A stretch of 40,129 nucleotides of DNA from Thermoanaerobaculia bacterium (GCA_023151375.1 JAKLJB010000081.1:1-40129), one strand, 5' to 3'. Positions 3,776-32,225 are shown, counted from the stretch's first letter. Notes: a model not told the origin generated them from the sequence alone. Made by a program: numbers and translations.

Positions 3776-4744
3776 CTAACCTCCGAGAGAAAACCTGACG
3801 GTCGTCGTGAGATAGACGTCGACAGGGACCCCTTCGACCCGGGCCGGCTCGTACTCGTACTCCTTCACCGCTTCCGCCGCGACTTGTCCGAGCCCCATCG
3901 GGAGGTCACGCAGAATCTGGACGGACCCGACGGTCCCGTCCCGCTTGACCAGAATCCGCAAGATCACGATCCCCTGCACGCCGGCGCGGCGTGCCCCGTC
4001 CGGGTAGCGGGGCTTCACCTCCTTCTTCAGGATGGGCCGTTCCGACCCCTCGGGGAGGCTCTCGTAGGGGCCGCTCGACACGGCCGGCCGATCGGGGGGC
4101 TCGAGCTCGCGTGCGGGAGGGATGGTGACCTCTCGGGCGGCGGGGCGGGGTGCGGGCTTTTCCGGCTCTTCCTCGGGAGGGTTCTCGGGCTCCGGAGTGG
4201 GAGTCGGCTCGGGCGGGACGAGCTGGACCGAGCGGCTCGCCACGAATCCGAGCGGCAGTCCGGGCAGCCTCAGTCCCAAGAAGTCTCCTCGCGTCGTGAG
4301 CACCTCGACCGGGGTGGCGGTCGGGATCTCGCCCCACTGGGCGGCCCCGTAGTCGGGTGCGAGGAACACGAGGGTCCGCTCGACTGTCAGACCCGGCTGG
4401 GGCGCAAAACCCTGGACTTCGCGGGTTCGCTCTTGCCGCTCGACGAGTTCAGAGGACCGTTCGAAAGTGCCCTGGGGAATCCAGGCCCGACGTCCGTCGG
4501 ACAACAGAACCGACACGAATCCATTCCTCGCCGCGCCGGCCTTGATCTGGGTTCCGCGCTTGAGCGTCGCGACGAGGGCCGAGGCCGCCGTGGCCTCCTG
4601 CCGGGCAAACGCCGGGTCGACGGAGATCGTCCCGGTGCTTTCGTCCGCCTGCGACTTCTTCGCGGCGCCCTTGCCGCAGGCCGACAGGGCAGAGATGAGA
4701 GATGCCGTCAGGACCGCCCGGGCGATCGCCCCCCGCCCCCGCAT
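3776..4744 (-). CDS. TonB C-terminal-domain lipoprotein (energy transducer TonB family)
   Basis: Lipobox LISALSAC-GKG. Pro/Glu-rich linker (PPEPTPTPEPENPPEEEPEKPAP). C-terminal TonB_C fold (PRYPDGARRAGVQGIVILRILVKRDGTVGSVQILR...AVKEYEYEP). The ATG sits 2 nt after the arcA stop. Confidence 0.7.
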   Translation of the reverse strand: MRGRGAIARAVLTASLISALSACGKGAAKKSQADESTGTISVDPAFARQEATAASALVATLKRGTQIKAGAARNGFVSVLLSDGRRAWIPQGTFERSSELVERQERTREVQGFAPQPGLTVERTLVFLAPDYGAAQWGEIPTATPVEVLTTRGDFLGLRLPGLPLGFVASRSVQLVPPEPTPTPEPENPPEEEPEKPAPRPAAREVTIPPARELEPPDRPAVSSGPYESLPEGSERPILKKEVKPRYPDGARRAGVQGIVILRILVKRDGTVGSVQILRDLPMGLGQVAAEAVKEYEYEPARVEGVPVDVYLTTTVRFSLGG

Positions 4745-4746
4745 GT

Positions 4747-6036
4747 TCAGGAGAGCGGGGCCCGCACGAGGGGCATCGTCATGCAGCGGGGCCCGCCGCG
4801 AGCCCGAGACAGCTCCGTCGACGTCAGGAGGATCGCGTACTTCTTCGACGGCTTCCAGAGCTCGAGCTCCCGCCGTCCGAGCAGCAGCTCGTCATCGGTG
4901 ATGACCTGGTACCCATGCCGCGTCAGCTCGTCGCACGTGCGCGTGTTTCGGTCGTAGAGCAGGATGACCCCGGGCGCCAGCGCAAACGCGTTCGCTCCGT
5001 CGGTCCATTGTTCCCGCTGCTGGTCGATCGGGTCTTTACCGCCGCACAGGAGGGGTTCGAGGTCGATCTTCCGGTGGCGAAGGGCCGTCAACAGATCCGC
5101 CTCGGTCGTCCATGTGATCTCTCTTTTCGTCAGATCCGCGACATAGACGTCCGCCTCCTCGGCTCCTCCCGCCAGGATCATCGGGGCATAGCAGAGGCAC
5201 TCGTGGTGGTTGATCTGGGTGAAGACCGTGTCGAGGTGCATGTACGACCGGGCTGGGGGAATCGCCACGACGAGGATCCTTTTGACGTGGGATTTGCCCT
5301 TCCGCAGCGCCTCGGCCAGGCGTTCGATGGTGATCTTCTCGGTCCTTTCCGAGTAGCCGATGACCAGGAGGTCTTCCCGCAGGACCAAGACGTCGCCGCC
5401 CTCGATCGTCGGACGCATCCGCGCGAAAGAGACCGGCCGGGAGAACTCGGTGGAGAACTCCTGGAACCAGAAGGGGTCGCCATCGAACGAGAAGCGTGAG
5501 TTGTGCGCGAAGGCCGCCCCGGAGATCAGGGGCTCGCGGGACCGGGCGGGCGTGGCCATCGAGGCCCGGATCAACCGGTCTCCCACCGCTATGGCGGGAT
5601 CCCTTTGGAAGAAGTAGTTGGGGATCGGGGGCAGGGCGAAGAGCGAGTCGAGCGTTCCCGAGATCTCGGGCGACTCCCTCTCGACTCCCTCGATGAGGGC
5701 GGCCGCGAGCTTCTCTGCCGGCATCTCGAGAAGGACCGGCAGGAGCTCCGCCGAGAGATGGAGCTCGGAAACGAGGCTCTCGAGCACCATCTGCTTCCGG
5801 TCGTCGTCCAGCAGGACCTCTTCGAGAAGATCCTGAATTTCAAGGACTTCCTGGGCGACGAACCGGAGGAGCTGCTGGAAGCGGCGGTGTTCCTCGCGGG
5901 CCCTGGCCCCGAACAGGATGTCGTCGAACAGGAGGTTCTGCATCATGGCCGGAACCATCCGGTCGATCTCTTTGCCCGGCTGGTGGATGACGACAGTCTC
6001 GAGCTTTCCGATTTCGGAATGGATCTGGAGTCTCAT
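4747..6036 (-). CDS. arcA: Arginine deiminase
   Basis: MRLQIHSEIGKLETVVIHQPGKEI N-terminus, HLDTVF, and C-terminal catalytic Cys in GGPRCMTMPLVR. The track ORF (to 6408) carries a 124-aa spurious N-terminal extension. ATG at 6036 chosen by homology. Confidence 0.85.
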   Translation of the reverse strand: MRLQIHSEIGKLETVVIHQPGKEIDRMVPAMMQNLLFDDILFGARAREEHRRFQQLLRFVAQEVLEIQDLLEEVLLDDDRKQMVLESLVSELHLSAELLPVLLEMPAEKLAAALIEGVERESPEISGTLDSLFALPPIPNYFFQRDPAIAVGDRLIRASMATPARSREPLISGAAFAHNSRFSFDGDPFWFQEFSTEFSRPVSFARMRPTIEGGDVLVLREDLLVIGYSERTEKITIERLAEALRKGKSHVKRILVVAIPPARSYMHLDTVFTQINHHECLCYAPMILAGGAEEADVYVADLTKREITWTTEADLLTALRHRKIDLEPLLCGGKDPIDQQREQWTDGANAFALAPGVILLYDRNTRTCDELTRHGYQVITDDELLLGRRELELWKPSKKYAILLTSTELSRARGGPRCMTMPLVRAPLS

Positions 6037-6297: not shown

Positions 6298-7757
6298 CCC
6301 CTGGGCCCGCCGATTCTCTCTTTGACCGGTACGAGAATCCGCTGGTCTCGCGGTACGCGTCGCCAGAAATGGTGCGTCTCTTCTCGGCGCGTTCGCGGAT
6401 CGGCACATGGAGAAGGCTCTGGCTTTGGCTGGCCGAGGCCGAGAAGGACCTGGGACTGCCGATTCCAGAGTCCGCCGTAGACGCCCTGAGACGCCACCTC
6501 GTGCCCACGGACGGCGAGATGGCCTCCGCGGCCCGGCACGAACGGCAGACGCTTCACGATGTCATGGCTCACGTCCATGCCCTCGGAGAGGCCGCGCCCG
6601 AGGCCAGGGGGATCATCCACCTCGGAGCGACCTCGTGCTACGTGACCGACAACGGAGATCTCCTCATCATCCGGGAGGCCCTGGAACGGCTCACCGCCAA
6701 GATCGTCAGGGTGATGAATGCCCTGGCCATCTTCGCGCGGCGCCACAAGGCGCTGCCCGCGACGGGCTTCACGCACTTCCAGTCCGCCCAACCCACAACA
6801 GCCGGAAAGAGAGCCTGCCTCTGGCTGCAGGACCTCCTCCTCGACTACCACGAGATCGTTAGGCAGAAGGAGAACATTCCCTTCCTCGGCTGCAAGGGAG
6901 CCACCGGCACGCAAGCCTCCTTCCTCGCTCTTTTCGAGGGCGATGCGGACAAGGTCGTCGAGCTCGACCGGCGGATCGCCGAAAAGGCCGGCTTTTGCCG
7001 CACGCTCACCATTGCCTCGCAGACGTACACCCGAAAGCTCGACACCCTTGTCCTCTCTGCCGTCTCTGGCCTGGCGGGCACGGCGGGGAAATTCGCCAAC
7101 GACGTTCGCCTCCTTCAGCATCTGAAAGAGCTCGAGGAACCGTTCGGCAAGGGGCAGGTCGGCTCCTCGGCGATGCCCTACAAGCGCAATCCGATGAAGT
7201 GCGAGCGAATCAACTCGCTCGCCCGCTGGCTCATCACCGTCTCGGCAAACGGCGCCTGGACGCACGCTCACCAGTGGCTCGAGCGGACGCTCGACGACTC
7301 GGCCAACAGGAGACTCGCCATCGGCGAGACCTTCCTTTCGGCCGACGCCATCCTGGTCCTCATGGAGGCCGTCGTCACGGGCTTCCACATCAACCCCACC
7401 GTCATGGAAAGACGGCTCGCCGCCGAGCTGCCGTTTCTGGCCACCGAGAACATCCTGATGGAAGCGGTGAAGCGAGGGGGCGACCGCCAGGTTCTCCACG
7501 AGAGGATCCGGACGCTTTCGCGCGAGGCCGCCGACAGGCTGAACGAGGGCGAAACCGAGAACGTCCTCATCGACGCAATCGCGCAAGACGAGGGTTTCCA
7601 GCTCTCCCGGTCCGAACTGGACAGTCTCCTGTCGGCCGAGCTCTTCACGGGCCGCGCGGCTGACCAGGTCGAGACATTCCTCGATGAGGAAGTCCTACCG
7701 GTCCTGCGCCGGCACGCCGCCGTTCTCGAGACACCGCCCACCGAGGTCACCGTTTGA
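6294..7757 (+). CDS. purB: Adenylosuccinate lyase (ADSL-type)
   Basis: Collinear with human ADSL from DRYENPLVSRYASPEM through HVMAHVH, IHLGATSCYV, GFTHFQSAQPTT, GSSAMPYKRNP, ERTLDDSANRR and ELPFLATENI. GTG at 6294 chosen because the upstream frame is occupied by a strongly coding small ORF. Confidence 0.9.
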   Translation: MTPGPADSLFDRYENPLVSRYASPEMVRLFSARSRIGTWRRLWLWLAEAEKDLGLPIPESAVDALRRHLVPTDGEMASAARHERQTLHDVMAHVHALGEAAPEARGIIHLGATSCYVTDNGDLLIIREALERLTAKIVRVMNALAIFARRHKALPATGFTHFQSAQPTTAGKRACLWLQDLLLDYHEIVRQKENIPFLGCKGATGTQASFLALFEGDADKVVELDRRIAEKAGFCRTLTIASQTYTRKLDTLVLSAVSGLAGTAGKFANDVRLLQHLKELEEPFGKGQVGSSAMPYKRNPMKCERINSLARWLITVSANGAWTHAHQWLERTLDDSANRRLAIGETFLSADAILVLMEAVVTGFHINPTVMERRLAAELPFLATENILMEAVKRGGDRQVLHERIRTLSREAADRLNEGETENVLIDAIAQDEGFQLSRSELDSLLSAELFTGRAADQVETFLDEEVLPVLRRHAAVLETPPTEVTV

Positions 7758-24419: not shown

Positions 24420-24590
24420 GCACAAAAAACCGTAGGAACCTCTCAGAACGCCCGCAAATCCCTCCATTCCATTGATTTCCCCTATTTACTCCAATTTCTC
24501 TCTTTTCCCCGCACCCTTGACTTACGTCTTTTTTGCGACTAGCGTTAGTCAGGCGCAAATACGGATTCGTGCTCGAGGGGGGAAAGGATC
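24420..24590. promoter_or_regulatory. AT-rich divergent control region (etfBA leftward, imuAB-dnaE2 rightward) with -35-like TTGACT and a GACTA-N4-TAGTC palindrome
   Basis: Local GC drops sharply (CCATTCCATTGATTTCCCCTATTTACTCCAATTTCTCTC...). TTGACT at 24517-24522. Inverted repeat GACTAgcgtTAGTC at 24537-24550. GAAC-N6-GAAC at 24436-24449. Confidence 0.35.
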
Positions 24591-25560: not shown

Positions 25561-27135
25561 GTGGCGCCGCGCATCGCGTGTCTCTTTGTCCCGCTCTTTC
25601 CCCTGGCGGCGCGTTTACGCAGTGAGCCTGAGTTGCGCGACGAGGCCGTCGTCATCGTGGAGGGCAATGGCACGGCGGCCCACGTCGTGGCGGCCTCGAA
25701 AAAGAGCCGCAAGGCCGGGATCCAGCCGGGCATGACGCTCCCCCAGGCAAGGGCGCTCTTACCAAAGCTGGTGGCGCGCAGCCGCGACGCCGCCTGCGAG
25801 AGGGCCGCGGAGGAAGTCCTGACCGAGGTCGCGGGCCGCTTCACCCCCCGCTGGGAAGACGCGGGGCAGGGAGTGGTTTACCTGGAACTCGGGCAGGCGG
25901 GGAAAGAGGATGTGAAAAAGCGGGAGAAGCTCCTGGGAAGCGACCTCATTGCCTGCTGCGAGAAGGAGAGCCTGCCGGCGCGCTGTGGCATCGCCGCGAA
26001 CAAGCTGGCGGCGCGGGTGGCGGCGGGACTCCCGGAGTCTCCCACGGTCATTCCAGCGGGCGAGGAGCCGGCGTTTCTGGCACCGCTCCCGCTCGACCGG
26101 CTGAGTCCGGAGATCGAGATCTCGGCGGTGCTTTCCCGCTGGGGGCTCTCGTCGATCGGAGACTTCGCGAAGCTCCCCGCCGCCGAGGTCGTGGCCCGTC
26201 TCGGGGAACCCGGCCGGGCGCTGCACGAATCGGCCCGGGGTATCGGCAGTCAGCCCTTTTTCCCCTCCGTGCCCCCGCCGCTCTTCTCCGAGGGGTTCGA
26301 CATCGATTGGCCCGTCGTGACTCTCGAACCGTTCCTCGAGTTCGTCGAGGCTGCTCTCGAAAGGCTCTTGAAGCGCCTCAAGACCGAGGCCCGAAGCTGC
26401 CGGGAACTCGCCCTGGAAATGAGGCTCGACCCCTCTGGAAGCGACGCGCGGGCGCTGTCCCTCCCGGCCCCCACGCAGGACCTCAAGACGTTGAAGACGC
26501 TCGTGAAGCTCGAGCTCGAGGCCCGTCCGCCGAAGGCCCCGATCATCGGGTTCACCCTGTCTGCTCATCCGGACCGGCCCCGGATGGGGCAGCTGACGCT
26601 CTTCGGCCCGGTGGAGATCTCTCCCGACCAGCTCGCGACGGCTCTCGCGCGGCTGGCCGTCCTCGTGGGAGAGGGCCGGATCGGCTCCCCGGATCTCTTC
26701 AACGGCCACCTTCCCGAAGGCTTCGTCACCGAGGCGTACGACCCGCCGCCGGCCCCCCTCAGGCCCACTCCGGCCCGGAGCCGGGGACTTCTCTCCGCAC
26801 GCGTTCTGCGCCCTCCCGTGGAGCTGGAAGTGTTAACGCAGGAAAAACCGGGCGGCTTCCGGCTGCTCTCGATCAAGCCACTTCCCGACAGCAAGGCCCT
26901 GCACACGGACACGACACCCCGGGAAACTGTCAAGCCGCCAGACGCCAAGGCCCTCGACGCGTTACGAGGCACGGTGCTCGTTGCCTCGGGCCCGTGGCAC
27001 CTCGAGGACGGCTGGTGGAGCGACCAGCCCGTCCGGCGGGCCTACTGGGACCTCGAGATATCGGGCGGGACTCTCTGCCGGATCTTTCGAGACGAGACGA
27101 ACGGCTGCTGGTTCGCGGACGGGATCTATGACTGA
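25561..27135 (+). CDS. imuB: ImuB (inactive Y-family polymerase-like mutasome subunit)
   Basis: IACLFVPLFPLAARLR N-terminus typical of ImuB/UmuC-like. AAGGAGGG SD 6 nt before GTG 25561. Position between imuA and dnaE2. Confidence 0.85.
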   Translation: MAPRIACLFVPLFPLAARLRSEPELRDEAVVIVEGNGTAAHVVAASKKSRKAGIQPGMTLPQARALLPKLVARSRDAACERAAEEVLTEVAGRFTPRWEDAGQGVVYLELGQAGKEDVKKREKLLGSDLIACCEKESLPARCGIAANKLAARVAAGLPESPTVIPAGEEPAFLAPLPLDRLSPEIEISAVLSRWGLSSIGDFAKLPAAEVVARLGEPGRALHESARGIGSQPFFPSVPPPLFSEGFDIDWPVVTLEPFLEFVEAALERLLKRLKTEARSCRELALEMRLDPSGSDARALSLPAPTQDLKTLKTLVKLELEARPPKAPIIGFTLSAHPDRPRMGQLTLFGPVEISPDQLATALARLAVLVGEGRIGSPDLFNGHLPEGFVTEAYDPPPAPLRPTPARSRGLLSARVLRPPVELEVLTQEKPGGFRLLSIKPLPDSKALHTDTTPRETVKPPDAKALDALRGTVLVASGPWHLEDGWWSDQPVRRAYWDLEISGGTLCRIFRDETNGCWFADGIYD

Positions 27136-27699
27136 GACGTCGAGTTCCTTCCCGGTGTCGCCTCCCGTCCAGGGGGAACGGCCTCGTGGGATTCGACACC
27201 TCGGACCTCGTGGGATTCAACACCACGAGCCTCGCAGGATCCAACGCCACGGGGAAGCTCTGGTAGCCCCCTCTTTTGTAAAGAGGGGGTTGGGGGAGTT
27301 AGAGCCCGCCCGCGAGCCTCACCCACACCGCCGGGCCGCGCTCCTCTTCCTGACACACGCCACCAACCCAGCAGAGATTGACGTCAACCTCGCAGAGGCG
27401 CTGCTTCGTAGCCCGGCGATTCATCGCCGGGCGTTCGCACGCTTTTCTCCGAACCCCAAAAAAAAGAGGGCGCGAGGGAACCAAAGTCCAGCCCGGTCTT
27501 CCATTCGAGCTCTAACTCCCCCAACCCCCTCTTTACAAAAGAGGGGGCTTTTCGGGCCGCTCCTGATTCACACCCCGCGGCTTTTCGGGCCGTTCCAGAT
27601 CCACGCCCGTGGCTTTTCGGGCCGCCACAGATCCACACCCCACGGCTTTTCGAGCCGCCACAGATCCACGCCCCGCAGCTTTTCGGGCAGACGGAATCT
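27128..27699. mobile_element. Foldback/MITE-like repeat unit 1 (572 bp), inserted at the imuB stop / dnaE2 start overlap
   Basis: Bounded by the 9-bp direct repeat ATGACTGAG (27128 and 27700). Perfect 39-bp inverted repeats at 27267-27305 and 27509-27548 flank a 203-bp core. Three 24-bp tandem repeats on the left (27182-27253). About 4.5 copies of a 33-bp tandem repeat on the right (27549-27699). Confidence 0.6.
27526..27553 (+). terminator. Terminator-like hairpin formed by the right inverted repeat of unit 1 (CCCCCTCTTT-aca-AAAGAGGGGG then CTTTTC)
   Basis: 9-10 bp GC-rich stem followed immediately by a U-rich tract on the imuB-dnaE2 sense strand. The identical structure recurs at 28075-28102 in unit 2. 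Confidence 0.4.
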
Positions 27700-28232
27700 A
27701 TGACTGAGACGTCGAGGTCCTCTCCGCTGCCGCCTCCCATCCAGGGAAAACGGGCTGGTGGGATTCAACACCACGGGCCTCGCAGGATTCAACGCCACGG
27801 GGAAGCTCTGGTAGCCCCCTCTTTTGTAAAGAGGGGGTTGGGGGAGTTAGAGCCCGCCCGCGAGCCCCACCCGCACCGCCGGGCCACGCTCCTCTTCCTG
27901 ACACACGCCACCAACCCAGCAGAGACCGACGTCAGCCTCGTAGAGGCGCTGCTTCGTAGCCCGGCGATTCATCGCCGGGCGTTCGCACGCTTTTCTCCGA
28001 ACCCCAAAGAGAAAGGGGGAGCGAGGGAACCAAAGTCCAGCCCGGCCTTCCATTCGAGCTCTAACTCCCCCAACCCCCTCTTTACAAAAGAGGGGGCTTT
28101 TCGAGCCGCTCCTGATTCACGCCCCGTGGCTTTTCGGGCCGTTCCAGATTCACACCCCGCGGCTTTTCGAGCCGCTCCTGATCCACAGCCCGTGGCTTTT
28201 CGGGCCGTTCACATCCCGGGGGCTTACCCCTC
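27700..28232. mobile_element. Foldback/MITE-like repeat unit 2 (533 bp), diverged tandem copy of unit 1
   Basis: Same architecture. 39-bp inverted repeats at 27815-27853 and 28058-28097. The core is about 95% identical to unit 1. Two left 24-bp repeats, about four right 33-bp repeats. Ends in ATGACTGAG, which is the dnaE2 start. Confidence 0.6.
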
Positions 28233-31200
28233 ATGACTGAGCGCTTCCCTCCCACCCGCGACCTCTTCATGCCGGGAGACGCGACGAAGATCATCGGCCC
28301 CGGCGCCCGCAAGGAGAAGCTGCGCAACCGCTCCTTCTCGCCCTCCGCACCCGCACCGGGAGCGCGGTATGTGGAACTGCACGCCGCCTCTGCCTTCTCC
28401 TTTCTCGATGGAGCCTCCGAGCCCGAGGACATCGTGGAAGCCGCCGCCGCCCTCGGTCTCCCCGCGGTCGCCCTCATCGACACGAACGGCGTCTACGGCG
28501 CCCCGCGCTTCTACAAGGCGGCGAAGAAGGCCGGGATCAGGGCTCTCGTCGGCGCGGAAGTCGTCCTGGACCCTTCTCCTTACATCCCTGCCGCTGCCGA
28601 CACGCAGAAGCGCGGCCCGCTGGCGCGCCAGCCGTCGCTGGCGCGCGGCCCGCTCGGCATCGTTCCGCCTCCCCCGCCGCCGGGTCTCCCCCCCGCCCGC
28701 GTGACGCTCCTCGTCGAGAGCCAGCGCGGCTACCGCAACCTCTGCCGGCTCCTGACCCAGGGCGCCCTCGGCAAGCCCAAGGGCGAGGCCGCCGTCACCT
28801 GGCACGACATCGCCCACCACTCCGACGGGCTCCACCTCCTGACCGGCAGCGACGAGGGCCCCGTCGCGCGCACCCTCGCCCAGGAGGGGATCGACTCGGC
28901 CCGGCGTCTTCTCGAGCGGCTCTCCGCCCTCTTCCCCGATCGCTGTCACGTGGAACTCCAGCGGCACAACCGTCGCGACGAGGAGCACCGCAACCAGGCC
29001 CTCGTCTCCCTCGCCCGCTCGCTCAAGCTCCCCCTGCTCGCGACGAACGGCGTCCGGTACGCACGGCGGGAAAAGCGGCCGCTCTTCGACATCCTGACCT
29101 GCATCCGGAACCACACGACGCTCGACGCCGCCGGAACCCTGCTCGACATCAACCGCGAACGCCACCTGAAGAACGCCTCCGAGATGGCGCTCCTCTTCGC
29201 CGACCTCCCCGAGGCCGTCGTCCATGGCGTCGAGCTTTCCGAGAGGCTCGACTTCACGCTCGCCAACCTCGGCTACCGCTTCCCCGAGTACCCGCTCCCG
29301 CCCGGAGACACCGCCGCTTCCCTCCTGCGCCGCCTCACGTGGGAAGCCGCGATGAGCCGCTTCCGCCCGCTTTCGGCCAAGGCCCAGGCACAGATCAACA
29401 AGGAACTCGCCCTCATCGAGAAGCTCGACCTCGCCGGCTACTTCCTCATCGTCTGGGACATCATCCAGTTCTGCAAGAGGAACGGGATCCTCGCGCAGGG
29501 ACGCGGCTCGGCCGCCAACAGCGCGGTCTGCTACGCCCTCTCCATCACGGCCGTCGATCCGGTCAAGATGGACCTCCTCTTCGAACGCTTCCTCTCCGAG
29601 GAGCGGGGCGAGTGGCCCGACATCGACCTCGATCTCCCCTCCGGCGATGCCCGGGAGAGCGTCATCCAGTACGTCTACCGGCGCTACGGCTCGCACGGTG
29701 CCGGGATGACGGCCAACGTCATCACGTATCGCGACCGCTCCGCCGCCCGCGAGGTCGCCAAGTCTCTCGGCTTCTCCGCCGAGCAGGTCGACCGGCTCGC
29801 CAAGCACCTCGGCAAGTGGAGCTTCGGCGAGTTCCGCGACGGGTTGCGGAAGTTCCCGGAAGAGATGCGGGCCGCCGGATTCGACCCCGAAGACCTCCGA
29901 ATCCGGCACTTCGAGACCTTCTGGAAGGAGATCCAGAACCTCCCCCGCCACCTCGGCCAGCACTCGGGCGGGATGGTCATCGCCATGGGGCGGCTCGACG
30001 AGGTCGTCCCGCTCGAACCCGCGGCGATGCCGGGCCGCAACGTCATCCAGTGGGACAAGGACGACTGCGCCGACCTAGGGATCGTCAAGGTCGACCTCCT
30101 CGGGCTCGGGATGCTCGGGGCGATCGCCGAGATGATCCCGACGATCCGGGAGCACGAGAAGGTCGACGTCGACCTCGCTCATCTCCGCATGGACGACCCG
30201 AAGGTCTTCCAGATGCTCAACGAGGCCGACACGGTGGGCGTCTTCCAGGTGGAAAGCCGTGCGCAGATGGCGTCGCTCCCCAGAAACGCGCCGAGGAACT
30301 TCTACGACCTCGTCATCCAGGTGGCCATCATCCGGCCCGGGCCCATCGTCGGCGGGATGGTCCACCCCTTCTTCGACCGCCGCCAGGGACGCGCCCCGGT
30401 CGAGTACCCGCACCCCTCGCTCGAACCCATCCTGGCCCGGACGCTCGGCGTCCCGCTCTTTCAGGAACAGCTCCTGAAGATCGCCATGGTCGCGGCGGGC
30501 TTCACCGGGGGCGAGGCGGAGGAGCTGCGGCGCGCGATGGGCTTCAAGCGTTCCTCCGAGCGGATGGCCGTCATCGAGAAGCGGCTGCGCGACGGGATGA
30601 CGAACCGCGGCATCACGGGCGAGGCGCAGGAACAGATCGTCAAGTCGATCACCTCCTTCGCGCTCTACGGATTTCCGGAGTCCCACGCGGCGAGCTTCGC
30701 CCTCATCGCCTACGCGAGCTGCTACCTGAAGGCCCACCACCCCGCGGCGTTCCTGAAAGGGCTCCTCAATGCCTGGCCGATGGGCTTCTACCACCCGGCA
30801 ACTCTCGTCAAGGACTCCCAGCGGCACGGCGTGACAGTCCTGCCGATCGACGTCTCCCACTCGGGTTGGATGTGCCGGATCGAGAAGGGAGCCGTGCGGC
30901 TCGGAATGCGGTTCTTGAAAGGCCTCCGGCAGGCCGCCGGGGAGCGGATCGCGAGGGAAGCTTCGTTCCGTCCCTTCGGAAGCACGCAAGAACTGGCGCG
31001 GCGCTGTGAACTCCACGAGGACGAACTCTCGGCCCTCGCCTTCTCCGGAGCGCTCGGATCCCTCGGCCTGACGCGGCGTGAGTCGCTCTGGCAGGTGGCG
31101 GCGGTTTCCCGGCACCAGGGACCGCTCTTCGATTCCTCGGACGAGGAGATGGCGCCGTCCCCGCTCCCGGAGATGTCGTCCTTCGAGGAGACGGTCGCGG

Positions 31201-31586
31201 ACTACACCTCCTCCGAGATCACGGCGGGACCGCATCTGATCGCCTACTACCGGAGGCAGTTCCGGGAGAAATCGATCTTCTCCGCGGAGGAGCTGACACG
31301 GCTCCCGGACGGCATGCGGGTCCGGACGGGAGGGGCGGTCGTCGTGAGGCAGCGGCCCGGGACAGCGAAAGGGTTCGTCTTTCTCTCACTCGAGGACGAG
31401 ACGGGAATGGCCCAGGCGATCGTGAAGCCCGACATCTTTCGCGAGAACCGGGCGCTCATCGTCGGGTCGCCAGGCCTCATCGTGGAGGGGCGGCTGCAGA
31501 AGACCGACGGGACGCTTTCCGTGAGGGCGGAGAAGTTCTGGCGGCTGCCGGACCTGCCACAGATCCCGAGTCACGACTTCAGATGA
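28233..31586 (+). CDS. dnaE2: Error-prone DNA polymerase DnaE2 (ImuC)
   Basis: N-terminal PHP domain (YVELHAASAFSFLDGASEPEDIV). Pol III alpha core (GRGSAANSAVCYALSITAVDP, DIDLDLPS, fingers/palm motifs). 1117 aa. Lies downstream of imuA-imuB. Confidence 0.9.
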   Translation: MTERFPPTRDLFMPGDATKIIGPGARKEKLRNRSFSPSAPAPGARYVELHAASAFSFLDGASEPEDIVEAAAALGLPAVALIDTNGVYGAPRFYKAAKKAGIRALVGAEVVLDPSPYIPAAADTQKRGPLARQPSLARGPLGIVPPPPPPGLPPARVTLLVESQRGYRNLCRLLTQGALGKPKGEAAVTWHDIAHHSDGLHLLTGSDEGPVARTLAQEGIDSARRLLERLSALFPDRCHVELQRHNRRDEEHRNQALVSLARSLKLPLLATNGVRYARREKRPLFDILTCIRNHTTLDAAGTLLDINRERHLKNASEMALLFADLPEAVVHGVELSERLDFTLANLGYRFPEYPLPPGDTAASLLRRLTWEAAMSRFRPLSAKAQAQINKELALIEKLDLAGYFLIVWDIIQFCKRNGILAQGRGSAANSAVCYALSITAVDPVKMDLLFERFLSEERGEWPDIDLDLPSGDARESVIQYVYRRYGSHGAGMTANVITYRDRSAAREVAKSLGFSAEQVDRLAKHLGKWSFGEFRDGLRKFPEEMRAAGFDPEDLRIRHFETFWKEIQNLPRHLGQHSGGMVIAMGRLDEVVPLEPAAMPGRNVIQWDKDDCADLGIVKVDLLGLGMLGAIAEMIPTIREHEKVDVDLAHLRMDDPKVFQMLNEADTVGVFQVESRAQMASLPRNAPRNFYDLVIQVAIIRPGPIVGGMVHPFFDRRQGRAPVEYPHPSLEPILARTLGVPLFQEQLLKIAMVAAGFTGGEAEELRRAMGFKRSSERMAVIEKRLRDGMTNRGITGEAQEQIVKSITSFALYGFPESHAASFALIAYASCYLKAHHPAAFLKGLLNAWPMGFYHPATLVKDSQRHGVTVLPIDVSHSGWMCRIEKGAVRLGMRFLKGLRQAAGERIAREASFRPFGSTQELARRCELHEDELSALAFSGALGSLGLTRRESLWQVAAVSRHQGPLFDSSDEEMAPSPLPEMSSFEETVADYTSSEITAGPHLIAYYRRQFREKSIFSAEELTRLPDGMRVRTGGAVVVRQRPGTAKGFVFLSLEDETGMAQAIVKPDIFRENRALIVGSPGLIVEGRLQKTDGTLSVRAEKFWRLPDLPQIPSHDFR

Positions 31587-31598
31587 AAGGAGAACCCC

Positions 31599-32225
31599 AT
31601 GATTCCAGAGCCCAGTTCGTATAGTGTTCCGGCGATGTCGAGCCAGCCTCTGCGCCGCCGCGCGACCTACCAGGACATCCTGGACCTGCCAGACAACGTG
31701 ACCGGTCAGCTCGTCGATGGCGAGTTGATCGCGTCGCCGCAACCGGTCATCCGGCACCAATGGAGTGCTTCCGCGCTGGGCGGCGACCTTTTCAACCCAT
31801 TCCATCGCGGCCGGGGTGGCCCTGGGGGCTGGTGGATCATCGATGAGCCCGAGCTTCACCTCGAAGAAGACATCCTCGTGCCGGATATCGGCGGCTGGCG
31901 AAAAGAGAAGCTCCCGATCCTCCCGGACGAGCCGTACTTCACGCTCGCTCCCGACTGGGTCTGTGAGGTTCTCTCCCCTTCGACGGCCCGCATCGACCGG
32001 ATCAAGAAGCTCCCGATTTACGCACGCGAAGGTGTCAGCCACGTCTGGCTGATCGATCCCGATCTTCAGACTCTCGAGGTCTTCAGGCTCGAGGGTCAGC
32101 GCTGGCTGCTGCTCCTGACGGCGGGAGGAGACGAGGTCGTGAGGGCCGAGCCGTTCGATGCCATCGAGTTGGAACTGGCGGGACTCTGGATCCAGCCGGC
32201 GGCGGCCGAACCGGACCGCCGCTGA
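31599..32225 (+). CDS. Uma2-family endonuclease-like protein (DUF820), second paralog
   Basis: APDWVCEVLSPST core. AAGGAG SD 7 nt before the ATG and only 12 nt after the dnaE2 stop. Confidence 0.75.
   Translation: MIPEPSSYSVPAMSSQPLRRRATYQDILDLPDNVTGQLVDGELIASPQPVIRHQWSASALGGDLFNPFHRGRGGPGGWWIIDEPELHLEEDILVPDIGGWRKEKLPILPDEPYFTLAPDWVCEVLSPSTARIDRIKKLPIYAREGVSHVWLIDPDLQTLEVFRLEGQRWLLLLTAGGDEVVRAEPFDAIELELAGLWIQPAAAEPDRR

Follow-up and report, generated by a model that had tools for sequence, protein, structure and literature searches.

The DNA examined here, which we call the window, is a stretch of 40,129 nucleotides (nt) from a Thermoanaerobaculia bacterium (GCA_023151375.1, JAKLJB010000081.1:1-40129). 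Pfam searches of the window identified an imuA-like gene, imuB, and an intact dnaE2 (ImuC), and our subject is the spacer of ~1.1 kb (positions 27136 to 28232) between the last two. The mutasome genes themselves are ordinary and intact. An earlier note on this DNA had read the spacer as two diverged tandem copies of a foldback element, similar to a miniature inverted-repeat transposable element (MITE), that split an overlap of imuB and dnaE2 and kept a chain of coupled open reading frames (ORFs). Our analysis leads to a different reading. We favor the view, which we hold to be probable, that the spacer is a noncoding mosaic of repeats resembling the repetitive extragenic palindromes (REPs) and bacterial interspersed mosaic elements (BIMEs) of enterobacteria, or MITE ends, that it was duplicated in tandem within a spacer that is a hotspot for insertions, and that it probably uncouples or attenuates dnaE2.

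The motif ATGACTGAG occurs at positions 27128, 27700, and 28233 and delimits two tandem units, 27128 to 27699 (572 bp) and 27700 to 28232 (533 bp), which align at 92% identity with one gap of 24 nt, one indel of a single nucleotide, and 3' ends that have diverged. Both units show terminal inverted repeats bounding a short noncoding element, as MITEs do (Table 1). The 39-nt arm that forms these repeats has four perfect copies in the spacer, with none expected by chance; the arms extend to 44 nt with 98% complementarity, and a repeat search places the paired 44-nt arms 197 to 198 nt apart. The flanking 24-nt and 33-nt tandem repeat units are themselves small hairpins, and the 33-nt array begins with the bases that usually follow the arm module (GGCTTTTCGG...). 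A 9-bp stem (GCCCGGCGA/TCGCCGGGC) is found in the cores of both units, which diverge at 5.6% of positions. The arms show no difference over 88 nt, against 11 of 197 positions in the core (P = 0.006), and identical arms beside diverged cores point to constraint or gene conversion. All of these elements had been placed correctly by the earlier note, which was also right to call the units diverged tandem copies rather than a fresh duplication; the palindrome TTGACGTCAA, which it took for a shared feature of the cores, is present in unit 1 only, and unit 2 reads CCGACGTCAG. The idea that the left 24-nt and right 33-nt arrays are inverted relatives of each other, forming a longer foldback, was rejected because their alignment score lies within that of shuffled sequences, and short palindromes, listed for the entire window, told us nothing further.

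Table 1. Features of the imuB-dnaE2 spacer and its flanks (window positions, unless a locus label is given)
Feature	Position	Strand	Remarks
imuB (Y-family polymerase-like)	25561..27135	+	Pfam IMS 1.8e-20; C terminus ...WFADGIYD-stop -> TATGACTGA
imuB 3' end, GACGGGATCT + ATGACTGAG; left boundary of duplicated segment, first ATGACTGAG	27118..27136	+	Repeat D4 starts at 27115, second copy at 27687
Unit 1 leader, unique sequence	27137..27180		15% divergence from unit 2 leader; no match at other loci
24-nt tandem repeats, unit 1, 3 copies	27181..27251		Tandem Repeats Finder (TRF); each a small hairpin (CCTCGTGG...CCACGAGG) in the minimum free energy (MFE) fold; no copies elsewhere
Unit 1 left arm, module M (GCTCTAACTCCCCCAACCCCCTCTTTACAAAAGAGGGGG) at 27267-27305	27265..27308	-	Hairpin first as read from imuB
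Unit 1 core	27309..27505		Not related to the core of any other inverted M pair
Acido-Lenti-1-like two-hairpin motif (RF01687), unit 1	27386..27431	-	cmscan 27.8 bits, E 3e-4, full model 1-46
Unit 1 right arm, module M at 27509-27547, then CTTTTCGG	27506..27549	+	Hairpin -19 to -22 kcal/mol
33-nt tandem repeats, unit 1, 4.4 copies	27546..27688		TRF; seeded from sequence right after M hairpin (GGCTTTTCGGGCC); one copy more in Bin_89R
Duplicated imuB 3' end (GACGGAATCT + ATGACTGAG), start of unit 2	27690..27708	+	Repeat D4, unit alignment
24-nt repeats, unit 2, 2 copies	27754..27801		24-nt gap in unit alignment
Unit 2 left arm, module M at 27815-27853	27813..27856	-	Repeat search, arm match
Unit 2 core	27857..28054		94% identical to unit 1 core, 1-nt insertion
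Acido-Lenti-1-like motif, unit 2	27934..27979	-	cmscan 36.8 bits against gathering score 37, E 1e-6
Unit 2 right arm, module M at 28058-28096	28055..28098	+	Repeat search, arm match
33-nt tandem repeats, unit 2, 3.4 copies	28095..28207		TRF
Unique tail 5' of dnaE2, outside duplication	28208..28232	+	Unit alignment fails here; weak similarity to region upstream of dnaE2 in L014
dnaE2 (ImuC), intact	28233..31586	+	Pfam PHP, DNA_pol3_alpha, finger, HHH_6, and OB domains
Genes after imuB in relatives	L015 6576-9800; L016 6582-8600; L033 4055-5359; L034 4046-5953; L035 4073-5685		MarC, PIN toxin/antitoxin pair, phage-integrase fragments, glyoxalase, cupin + methyltransferase

Why does the spacer contain three copies of ATGACTGAG? 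The first is there because ImuB has a conserved C terminus (W[F/Y]ADG[I/V]YD-stop in six relatives) and the third because DnaE2 has a conserved N terminus (M[T/S/A]E..PPTRD, namely MTERFPPTRDLF here, VSEPHPPCRELF in the relative L014, and MAEGPPTRDF in L035). Directly 5' of the middle copy stands GACGGAATCT, a match to GACGGGATCT at the end of imuB, so that this copy shares 10 further upstream bases with the imuB end (GACGGRATCT). By these shared bases, the tandem duplication began inside imuB, at ~27118, with its junction within a 33-nt repeat. The middle ATGACTGAG is, judged by this extended match, a duplicate of the imuB end, the duplication having taken the last 18 nt of the gene with it; each ATGACTGAG lies at least 130 nt from the arms.

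The junction in relatives agrees with this account. In L014, the nearest relative with conserved synteny (ImuB 66% identical), imuB ends with TATGACTGAG and dnaE2 starts with GTGTCTGAG; the 62 nt between them contain neither the arm module nor any repeat element. The two genes hence keep both motifs apart, with no overlap, in a locus that lacks the element. The coding ends of both genes plus the tandem duplication explain the copies of ATGACTGAG, and neither the 8-nt gene overlap that the earlier note had reconstructed nor a 9-bp target duplication is supported. The imuB end and dnaE2 start of L014 are alike at 7 of 9 positions, and given this likeness an older duplication of the junction remains conceivable. 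In five more distant relatives (ImuB 58 to 60% identical), unrelated genes follow imuB, and dnaE2 has been moved away or is missing from the locus. This clade seems to have acquired insertions repeatedly at the imuB-dnaE2 junction, which is relevant to the regulation and the splitting of the SOS mutagenesis cassette.

Each arm contains the 39-nt module that we call M, with a 10-bp stem and usually with CTTYGGAG right after it. We scanned one genome per species for exact matches to a 23-mer of the arm and obtained seven loci, all in one near-identical metagenome-assembled genome (MAG), Bin_89R (Thermoanaerobaculia bacterium, JAJVIN01). The imuA-imuB-dnaE2 locus is itself among them (L005/L008), and its P0001 is 100% identical to the imuB product of the window, and the 6 further loci hold at least 13 copies of M outside the imuB-dnaE2 spacer. 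A metagenome scan with a 25-nt pattern, allowing two free positions, added 18 copies on 16 contigs (17 within 6 mismatches and one variant with a loop insertion); two of these contigs belong to the MAG with the closest ImuB relative, and two have a GC content of 42 to 54%. Nearly all copies in both sets are intergenic. The 3' half of the hairpin lay outside the search pattern yet is always complementary, and the closing pair of the stem covaries: most copies have T-A, L004 has G-C, and L018 and L029 have A-T.

Copies of M occur as singletons, as inverted pairs, and, at L007, on both sides of a DUF559 gene and within a 225-bp tandem array. In the inverted pairs the GTTAGAGC/GCTCTAAC tails always face inward, and the enclosed cores measure 203 nt in the window, 233 nt at L002, 188 nt at L006, 141 nt at L022, and 148 nt at L024. 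No homology was found among the cores of the six inverted pairs, all of which are unrelated, and those at L002 and L006 have no Rfam match. Target-site duplications are absent from the pairs in the window and at L002, L006, L022, and L024, where the flanks differ. The first M past a gene 3' end is oriented hairpin first in 13 of 14 cases (p = 0.002, with a crude gene call based on GC at third codon positions), and the first arm after imuB has this same orientation. The adjoining genes are diverse housekeeping genes; among 68 ORFs near M in the fetched loci there is no transposase, and no distant inverted M pair was seen there. Nor is any gene family, such as transposases or REP-associated tyrosine transposases (RAYTs), enriched beside M, where we counted 86 unrelated families. 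M is absent from Rfam, and the whole window gave no match to that database at the gathering threshold. We propose M as a candidate REP-like family of the Thermoanaerobaculia, undescribed so far, and the arms belong to this dispersed, probably mobile family of short repeats. The REP-like elements of this phylum are poorly described, and M offers a case with a covarying stem and a strong orientation bias past gene 3' ends that is conserved almost base for base in several Thermoanaerobaculia assemblies and on the two contigs of lower GC content.

Other identities for M and its cores were considered. An attC-like site (GCTCTAAC...GTTAGAGC) was set aside: most copies lack the second half, they are scattered or form inverted pairs instead of arrays, and integrases are missing from the neighborhood. 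The arrangement at L007 suggested that the cores might be decayed DUF559 genes, and this idea was dropped after tblastn gave no significant match. We also rejected the idea that L004 and L019 represent one orthologous M site shared by two genera, since their DNA is 91 to 96% identical while the ImuB proteins of the two MAGs are only 66% identical. The shared DNA, positions 1 to 6864 of L004 and 1718 to 8691 of L019, extends over more than 6 kb and includes an Eco57I-like methylase/restriction gene and a copy of M; it reflects either recent horizontal transfer or bin contamination and is no evidence of age. At L004, M sits within a stop-free frame of 1599 codons. Long coding-looking ORFs enter M and stop inside it, for example at the TAG of GTTAGAGC, at L020 (1989 to 2027), L022 (3281 to 3319), and L007 (4582 to 4620), and insertion of M may have remodeled the 3' ends of some genes.

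How does the spacer compare with known repeat systems? REP and BIME elements stabilize upstream mRNA and attenuate downstream expression. They are short extragenic palindromes of alternating orientation that form mosaics with other motifs, vary between strains in the number of units, and lie between genes of one operon or past gene 3' ends. The spacer likewise shows short, multicopy extragenic palindromes, alternating arms combined with other motifs, and a difference of one repeat between strains. It differs in that the sequences are unrelated, M having a conserved single-stranded tail of 16 nt and a 10-bp stem closed by A/T instead of GTAG plus a GC stem; inverted M copies are 141 to 233 nt apart, the copies found so far are in the tens and not the hundreds, and there is no RAYT among the fetched M neighbors. 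REPINs (Bertels and Rainey, PMC3116915) share the unit of two inverted conserved palindromes, the extragenic location, and the long persistence, M recurring in more than one MAG and in several metagenome assemblies; REPIN spacers, in contrast, are short and homologous, and those of the M pairs (141 to 233 nt) are unrelated. Correia repeat-enclosed elements, MITEs of Neisseria, are foldbacks with terminal inverted repeats that are cotranscribed, cleaved by RNase III, and alter the expression of neighboring genes (PMC2649163), which makes them the closest functional parallel to the 41-bp duplex that we predict. Correia elements are uniform (100 to 155 bp), have a conserved core, and show a TA target duplication, whereas the core enclosed by M varies among loci and no target-site duplication is seen. 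Finally, pneumococcal BOX elements (PMC3049150) are similar in that an internal module is reiterated in tandem a variable number of times in a hairpin-forming, intergenic, and cotranscribed element; their modules are different, inverted 39-nt termini are missing, and they occur in a different phylum.

In the predicted fold of the unit 1 RNA, the two arms form a perfect 41-bp duplex (MFE -259 kcal/mol, z = -7), and single arm hairpins have energies of -19 to -29 kcal/mol. The M stem (10 bp, -19 to -22 kcal/mol) is flanked by a tract CUUUUCGG and, on its other side, by UUGGGGG. The earlier note had seen a stem plus U-tract that might terminate or attenuate transcription ahead of dnaE2; the tract has only 4 U, a terminator scan makes no call, and other copies of M are not followed by a U-rich tail. 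Part of that idea survives, since the hairpins could affect transcription or the fate of the mRNA.

The promoter arrangement bears on whether the spacer is transcribed together with its flanking genes. A promoter/operator-like motif, TTGACTTACGTCT (a -35-like TTGACT, 17 nt, and then TAnnnT), occurs in the window only upstream of imuA (24517 to 24529), at a distance of ~55 nt from the gene that it also keeps in L014 (4215 to 4227). In L035 the motif, reading TTGACTTACGTCTTACTTACGTCT, stands ~20 nt upstream of a dnaE2 that is detached from imuAB (5648 to 5660). This motif is probably the damage-inducible promoter/operator of the clade's mutagenesis cassette. No copy precedes dnaE2 in the window, and as the sole recognizable promoter-like motif lies upstream of imuA, dnaE2 is probably read through the spacer.

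We propose that a mosaic of ~550 bp accreted downstream of imuB and was then duplicated in place, and that this would have produced the middle ATGACTGAG from the last 18 nt of imuB. Its parts are two inverted copies of M (39 to 44 nt), a core with a double hairpin of the Acido-Lenti-1 type, and 24-nt and 33-nt arrays presumably formed by local slippage, whose copy number still varies between strains. The transcript is predicted to fold into hairpins of 10 to 12 bp and two perfect duplexes of 41 to 44 bp, which may act as barriers to 3' exonucleases, as weak terminators, and as substrates for RNase III. Most likely, the spacer would stabilize the 3' ends of imuAB transcripts, be cut by RNase III, and thereby uncouple dnaE2 from imuAB and lower its expression; attenuation and uncoupling are suggested here by analogy with REP/BIME and Correia elements. 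Such an effect on expression would be a side effect of the accumulation of selfish or neutral repeats, and not a designed relay.

Several points weigh against this reading of the spacer as a repeat mosaic that dampens dnaE2. The genome-wide census of M depends on a single exact-match scan, with a 23-mer, in a MAG that is incomplete, and the copy number of the 24-nt units, the 33-nt units, and the core elsewhere is known only for ~290 kb of fetched loci. Among the fetched M neighbors no RAYT, Y1 transposase, or insertion sequence with M ends was seen. dnaE2 is intact and has a strong coding bias, so its usefulness has clearly not been abolished by the spacer. Scans of the spacer for sigma-70 promoters and terminators called nothing, and a canonical U-tract is absent; the promoter scan also missed the imuA promoter, and an internal promoter of a non-sigma-70 type is possible. 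Attenuation, RNase III cleavage, and read-through are steps that we infer.

The same mosaic might have no effect on expression at all, with dnaE2 either served by its own unrecognized promoter in the last unit or tail or reached by unimpeded read-through. In this clade unrelated genes often stand between imuB and dnaE2, and dnaE2 can carry its own TTGACTTACGTCT, so coupling is dispensable; the intact dnaE2 and the hairpins without a U-tract would also fit a neutral passenger. The window has no TTGACTTACGTCT copy upstream of dnaE2, though, the scan called no sigma-70-like site, and perfect RNA duplexes of 41 bp are unlikely to be inert if transcribed. We regard the absence of any effect as unlikely, while granting it a real chance.

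What is the core? In a permissive Rfam scan of the spacer, both units matched Acido-Lenti-1 (RF01687) over the full length of the model, and did so on the minus strand only. Model positions 1 to 46 are aligned without a noncanonical pair, and the architecture of two hairpins (8 bp and 5 bp) and a 12-nt linker with GGCUA is kept; the matches contain the 9-bp stem described in the earlier note. The scores of 36.8 (unit 2) and 27.8 bits (unit 1) are below the gathering cutoff of 37 bits. Acido-Lenti-1 was described from Acidobacteria and Lentisphaerae, sometimes near group II introns, the latter noted for Lentisphaerae (Weinberg et al. 2010, PMC2864571), and its seed alignment contains many copies per genome, often in tandem at a spacing of 74 to 200 nt (PMC2864571 supplement). 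The first hairpin of the core motif is nearly identical to those of soil and whale-fall members (CCCAGCGAUGAAUCGCUGGGCUA), and the motif, like the family, is tandem and multicopy; unlike the family, it lies inside a foldback between M arms and antisense to the operon, and it scores 0.2 and 9 bits under the cutoff.

Rfam and Weinberg et al. (PMC2864571) class Acido-Lenti-1 as a probable small RNA (sRNA). Each core might accordingly be a minus-strand transcription unit of this type, insulated by the outward M hairpins, whose RNA or whose transcription interferes with the operon. The strand specificity and completeness of the match (E 1e-6 in unit 2) speak for such antisense genes, and on the minus strand M follows the core in the gene-to-hairpin direction. 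The scores under the cutoff speak against them, as do a promoter scan that found no promoter-like site on the minus strand, the behavior of the family as a multicopy tandem repeat, and the unrelated cores of the other M pairs. We consider antisense sRNA genes improbable. The occurrence of this "sRNA" motif as a module of a repeat mosaic supports viewing this Rfam family as a repetitive element and not as a trans-acting RNA. A core stem-loop (GTAGCCCGGCGA(W)TCATCGCCGGGCGTTC), a REP-like hairpin with GTAG and a GC stem, has more copies at L001 (2987 to 3020 and 3111 to 3150) and L003 (5812 to 5833), the two at L001 lying 124 nt apart past a baeRF-family gene. These are not Acido-Lenti-1 copies, since they resemble only its first hairpin and lack the second, and the retention of the first hairpin only at L001 is a further point against sRNA genes.

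Is the whole unit mobile? In a BLAST comparison of the window with the other six MAG loci, only 41 to 52 nt of the arm and a core piece of 22 to 40 nt match. No other arm-bearing locus has a copy of the leader, of the 24-nt or 33-nt repeats, or of the remaining core, the search being limited to loci found by the exact 23- or 25-mer of the arm. By this comparison the 572-bp unit is not a transposable unit. The foldback, MITE-like element of the earlier note is thus right as to its inverted arms, which are real and recur, dispersed, at other loci, and wrong as to the unit, of which neither a second complete copy nor target-site duplications were found. It is conceivable that M is the recognition end of an undescribed mobilization system that depends on single strands or hairpins. 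Inverted, hairpin-outward pairs would then move arbitrary cargos of ~140 to 440 nt, such as the Acido-Lenti-1 RNA here, the DUF559 nuclease gene at L007, and unrelated sequence elsewhere, and the copy in the mutasome locus would have been kept for setting the ratio of DnaE2 to ImuB. We think this doubtful and offer it as speculation.

We return to the model in which two MITEs inserted into an ancestral ATGACTGA overlap, generated a 9-bp target duplication, and left a chain of coupled ORFs that hands ribosomes from imuB to dnaE2. The three copies of ATGACTGAG speak for it, together with the fact that both unit frames starting at ATGACTGAG are open and end on ATGA or ACTGA, and the likeness of the imuB end and dnaE2 start in L014 also fits it. 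The frames do not look coding. The right halves of the two units are read in different frames owing to the 1-nt indel, and in Bin_89R a 32-nt indel shifts the frame again, so that the annotated 203-amino-acid ORF ends on the second TGA of ATGACTGA. GC contents at codon positions 1, 2, and 3 are flat in the spacer ORFs (0.65/0.58/0.66 and 0.68/0.59/0.63) compared with imuB (0.71/0.51/0.84) and dnaE2 (0.68/0.46/0.90). Neither ORF has a Pfam match, and among 5.8 billion proteins the only homologue is the ORF of Bin_89R itself.

Open frames of this length are not surprising in such DNA. Two of the three plus-strand frames of the right half are open, and ATGACTGA has a TGA in both other frames, so open frames are likely to end on it. 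In shuffles of unit 1 that preserve dinucleotides, the ATG frame was open in 13% of trials, and the window contains 100 stretches of 178 codons or more without a stop; 28 look coding and 72 do not. Moreover, unit 2 was copied from unit 1, and the two open frames are not independent. The chance of around 1e-3 that the earlier note had given for them is therefore far too low. GC-rich composition, the imuB stop and ATG carried along by the duplication, and the stops of ATGACTGA in two frames account for the chain of frames. By these measures the open frames are a compositional by-product and the spacer is noncoding; the frames are open as claimed, whereas a relay of coupled peptides finds no support. 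With the 10-nt extension of the middle copy into imuB sequence, the 62 nt between the motifs in the element-free L014, and an M family whose pairs all lack target-site duplications, the model is largely refuted, and we give it very little credence. As originally framed the finding matters little, as there is neither a new translational coupling nor a MITE with a target duplication.

It is just as hard to believe that misassembly produced the tandem duplication or the repeat copy numbers: short-read assemblies from five samples all break at the first M hairpin and one 32-nt repeat sets apart the two full-length versions that are available, but two different assemblies, with flanks that differ at ~0.3% of positions, both show two units with the same 50 unit-specific differences, and collapsed or expanded repeats would not give copies diverged by 6 to 9%. 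The second of these assemblies is Bin_89R, whose spacer equals that of the window apart from one additional 32-nt right-hand repeat. The short-read (Logan) contigs from the five samples, which encode an identical ImuB (L009 to L013), all end 136 to 156 nt past the imuB stop, inside or just after the first M hairpin, and the spacer was never assembled from short reads; breaks at the first arm are expected if the arm is repeated in those genomes. A strain with the ImuB of the window is hence present in several public runs, as five independent short-read assemblies attest; runs with this strain are SRR28201750, SRR18671895, SRR28263011, SRR10609169, and SRR6928282. Looking up DnaE2 and the ImuB translation of the window (GTG start) as exact proteins gave no match, and a lookup with P0001 succeeded.

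Some minor observations concern the surroundings of M and of the mutasome genes. At L007 (3349 to 4620), the DUF559 gene, which encodes a Vsr-like nuclease (4014 to 4412, minus strand), lies between an inverted M pair and takes its TAA stop from M. The last ~180 nt of this gene, together with M, form the three tandem repeats with the 225-bp period, and two more copies of M, 119 nt apart, follow them. At ~2 kb from this cluster of M copies (6776 to 6853, minus strand), the sequence matches a group II intron domain (RF00029) with 41 bits, the gathering score being 40. In the window, a Uma2-family gene (putative restriction endonuclease-like; 31599 to 32225) begins 12 nt past the dnaE2 stop, and Bin_89R is arranged alike.

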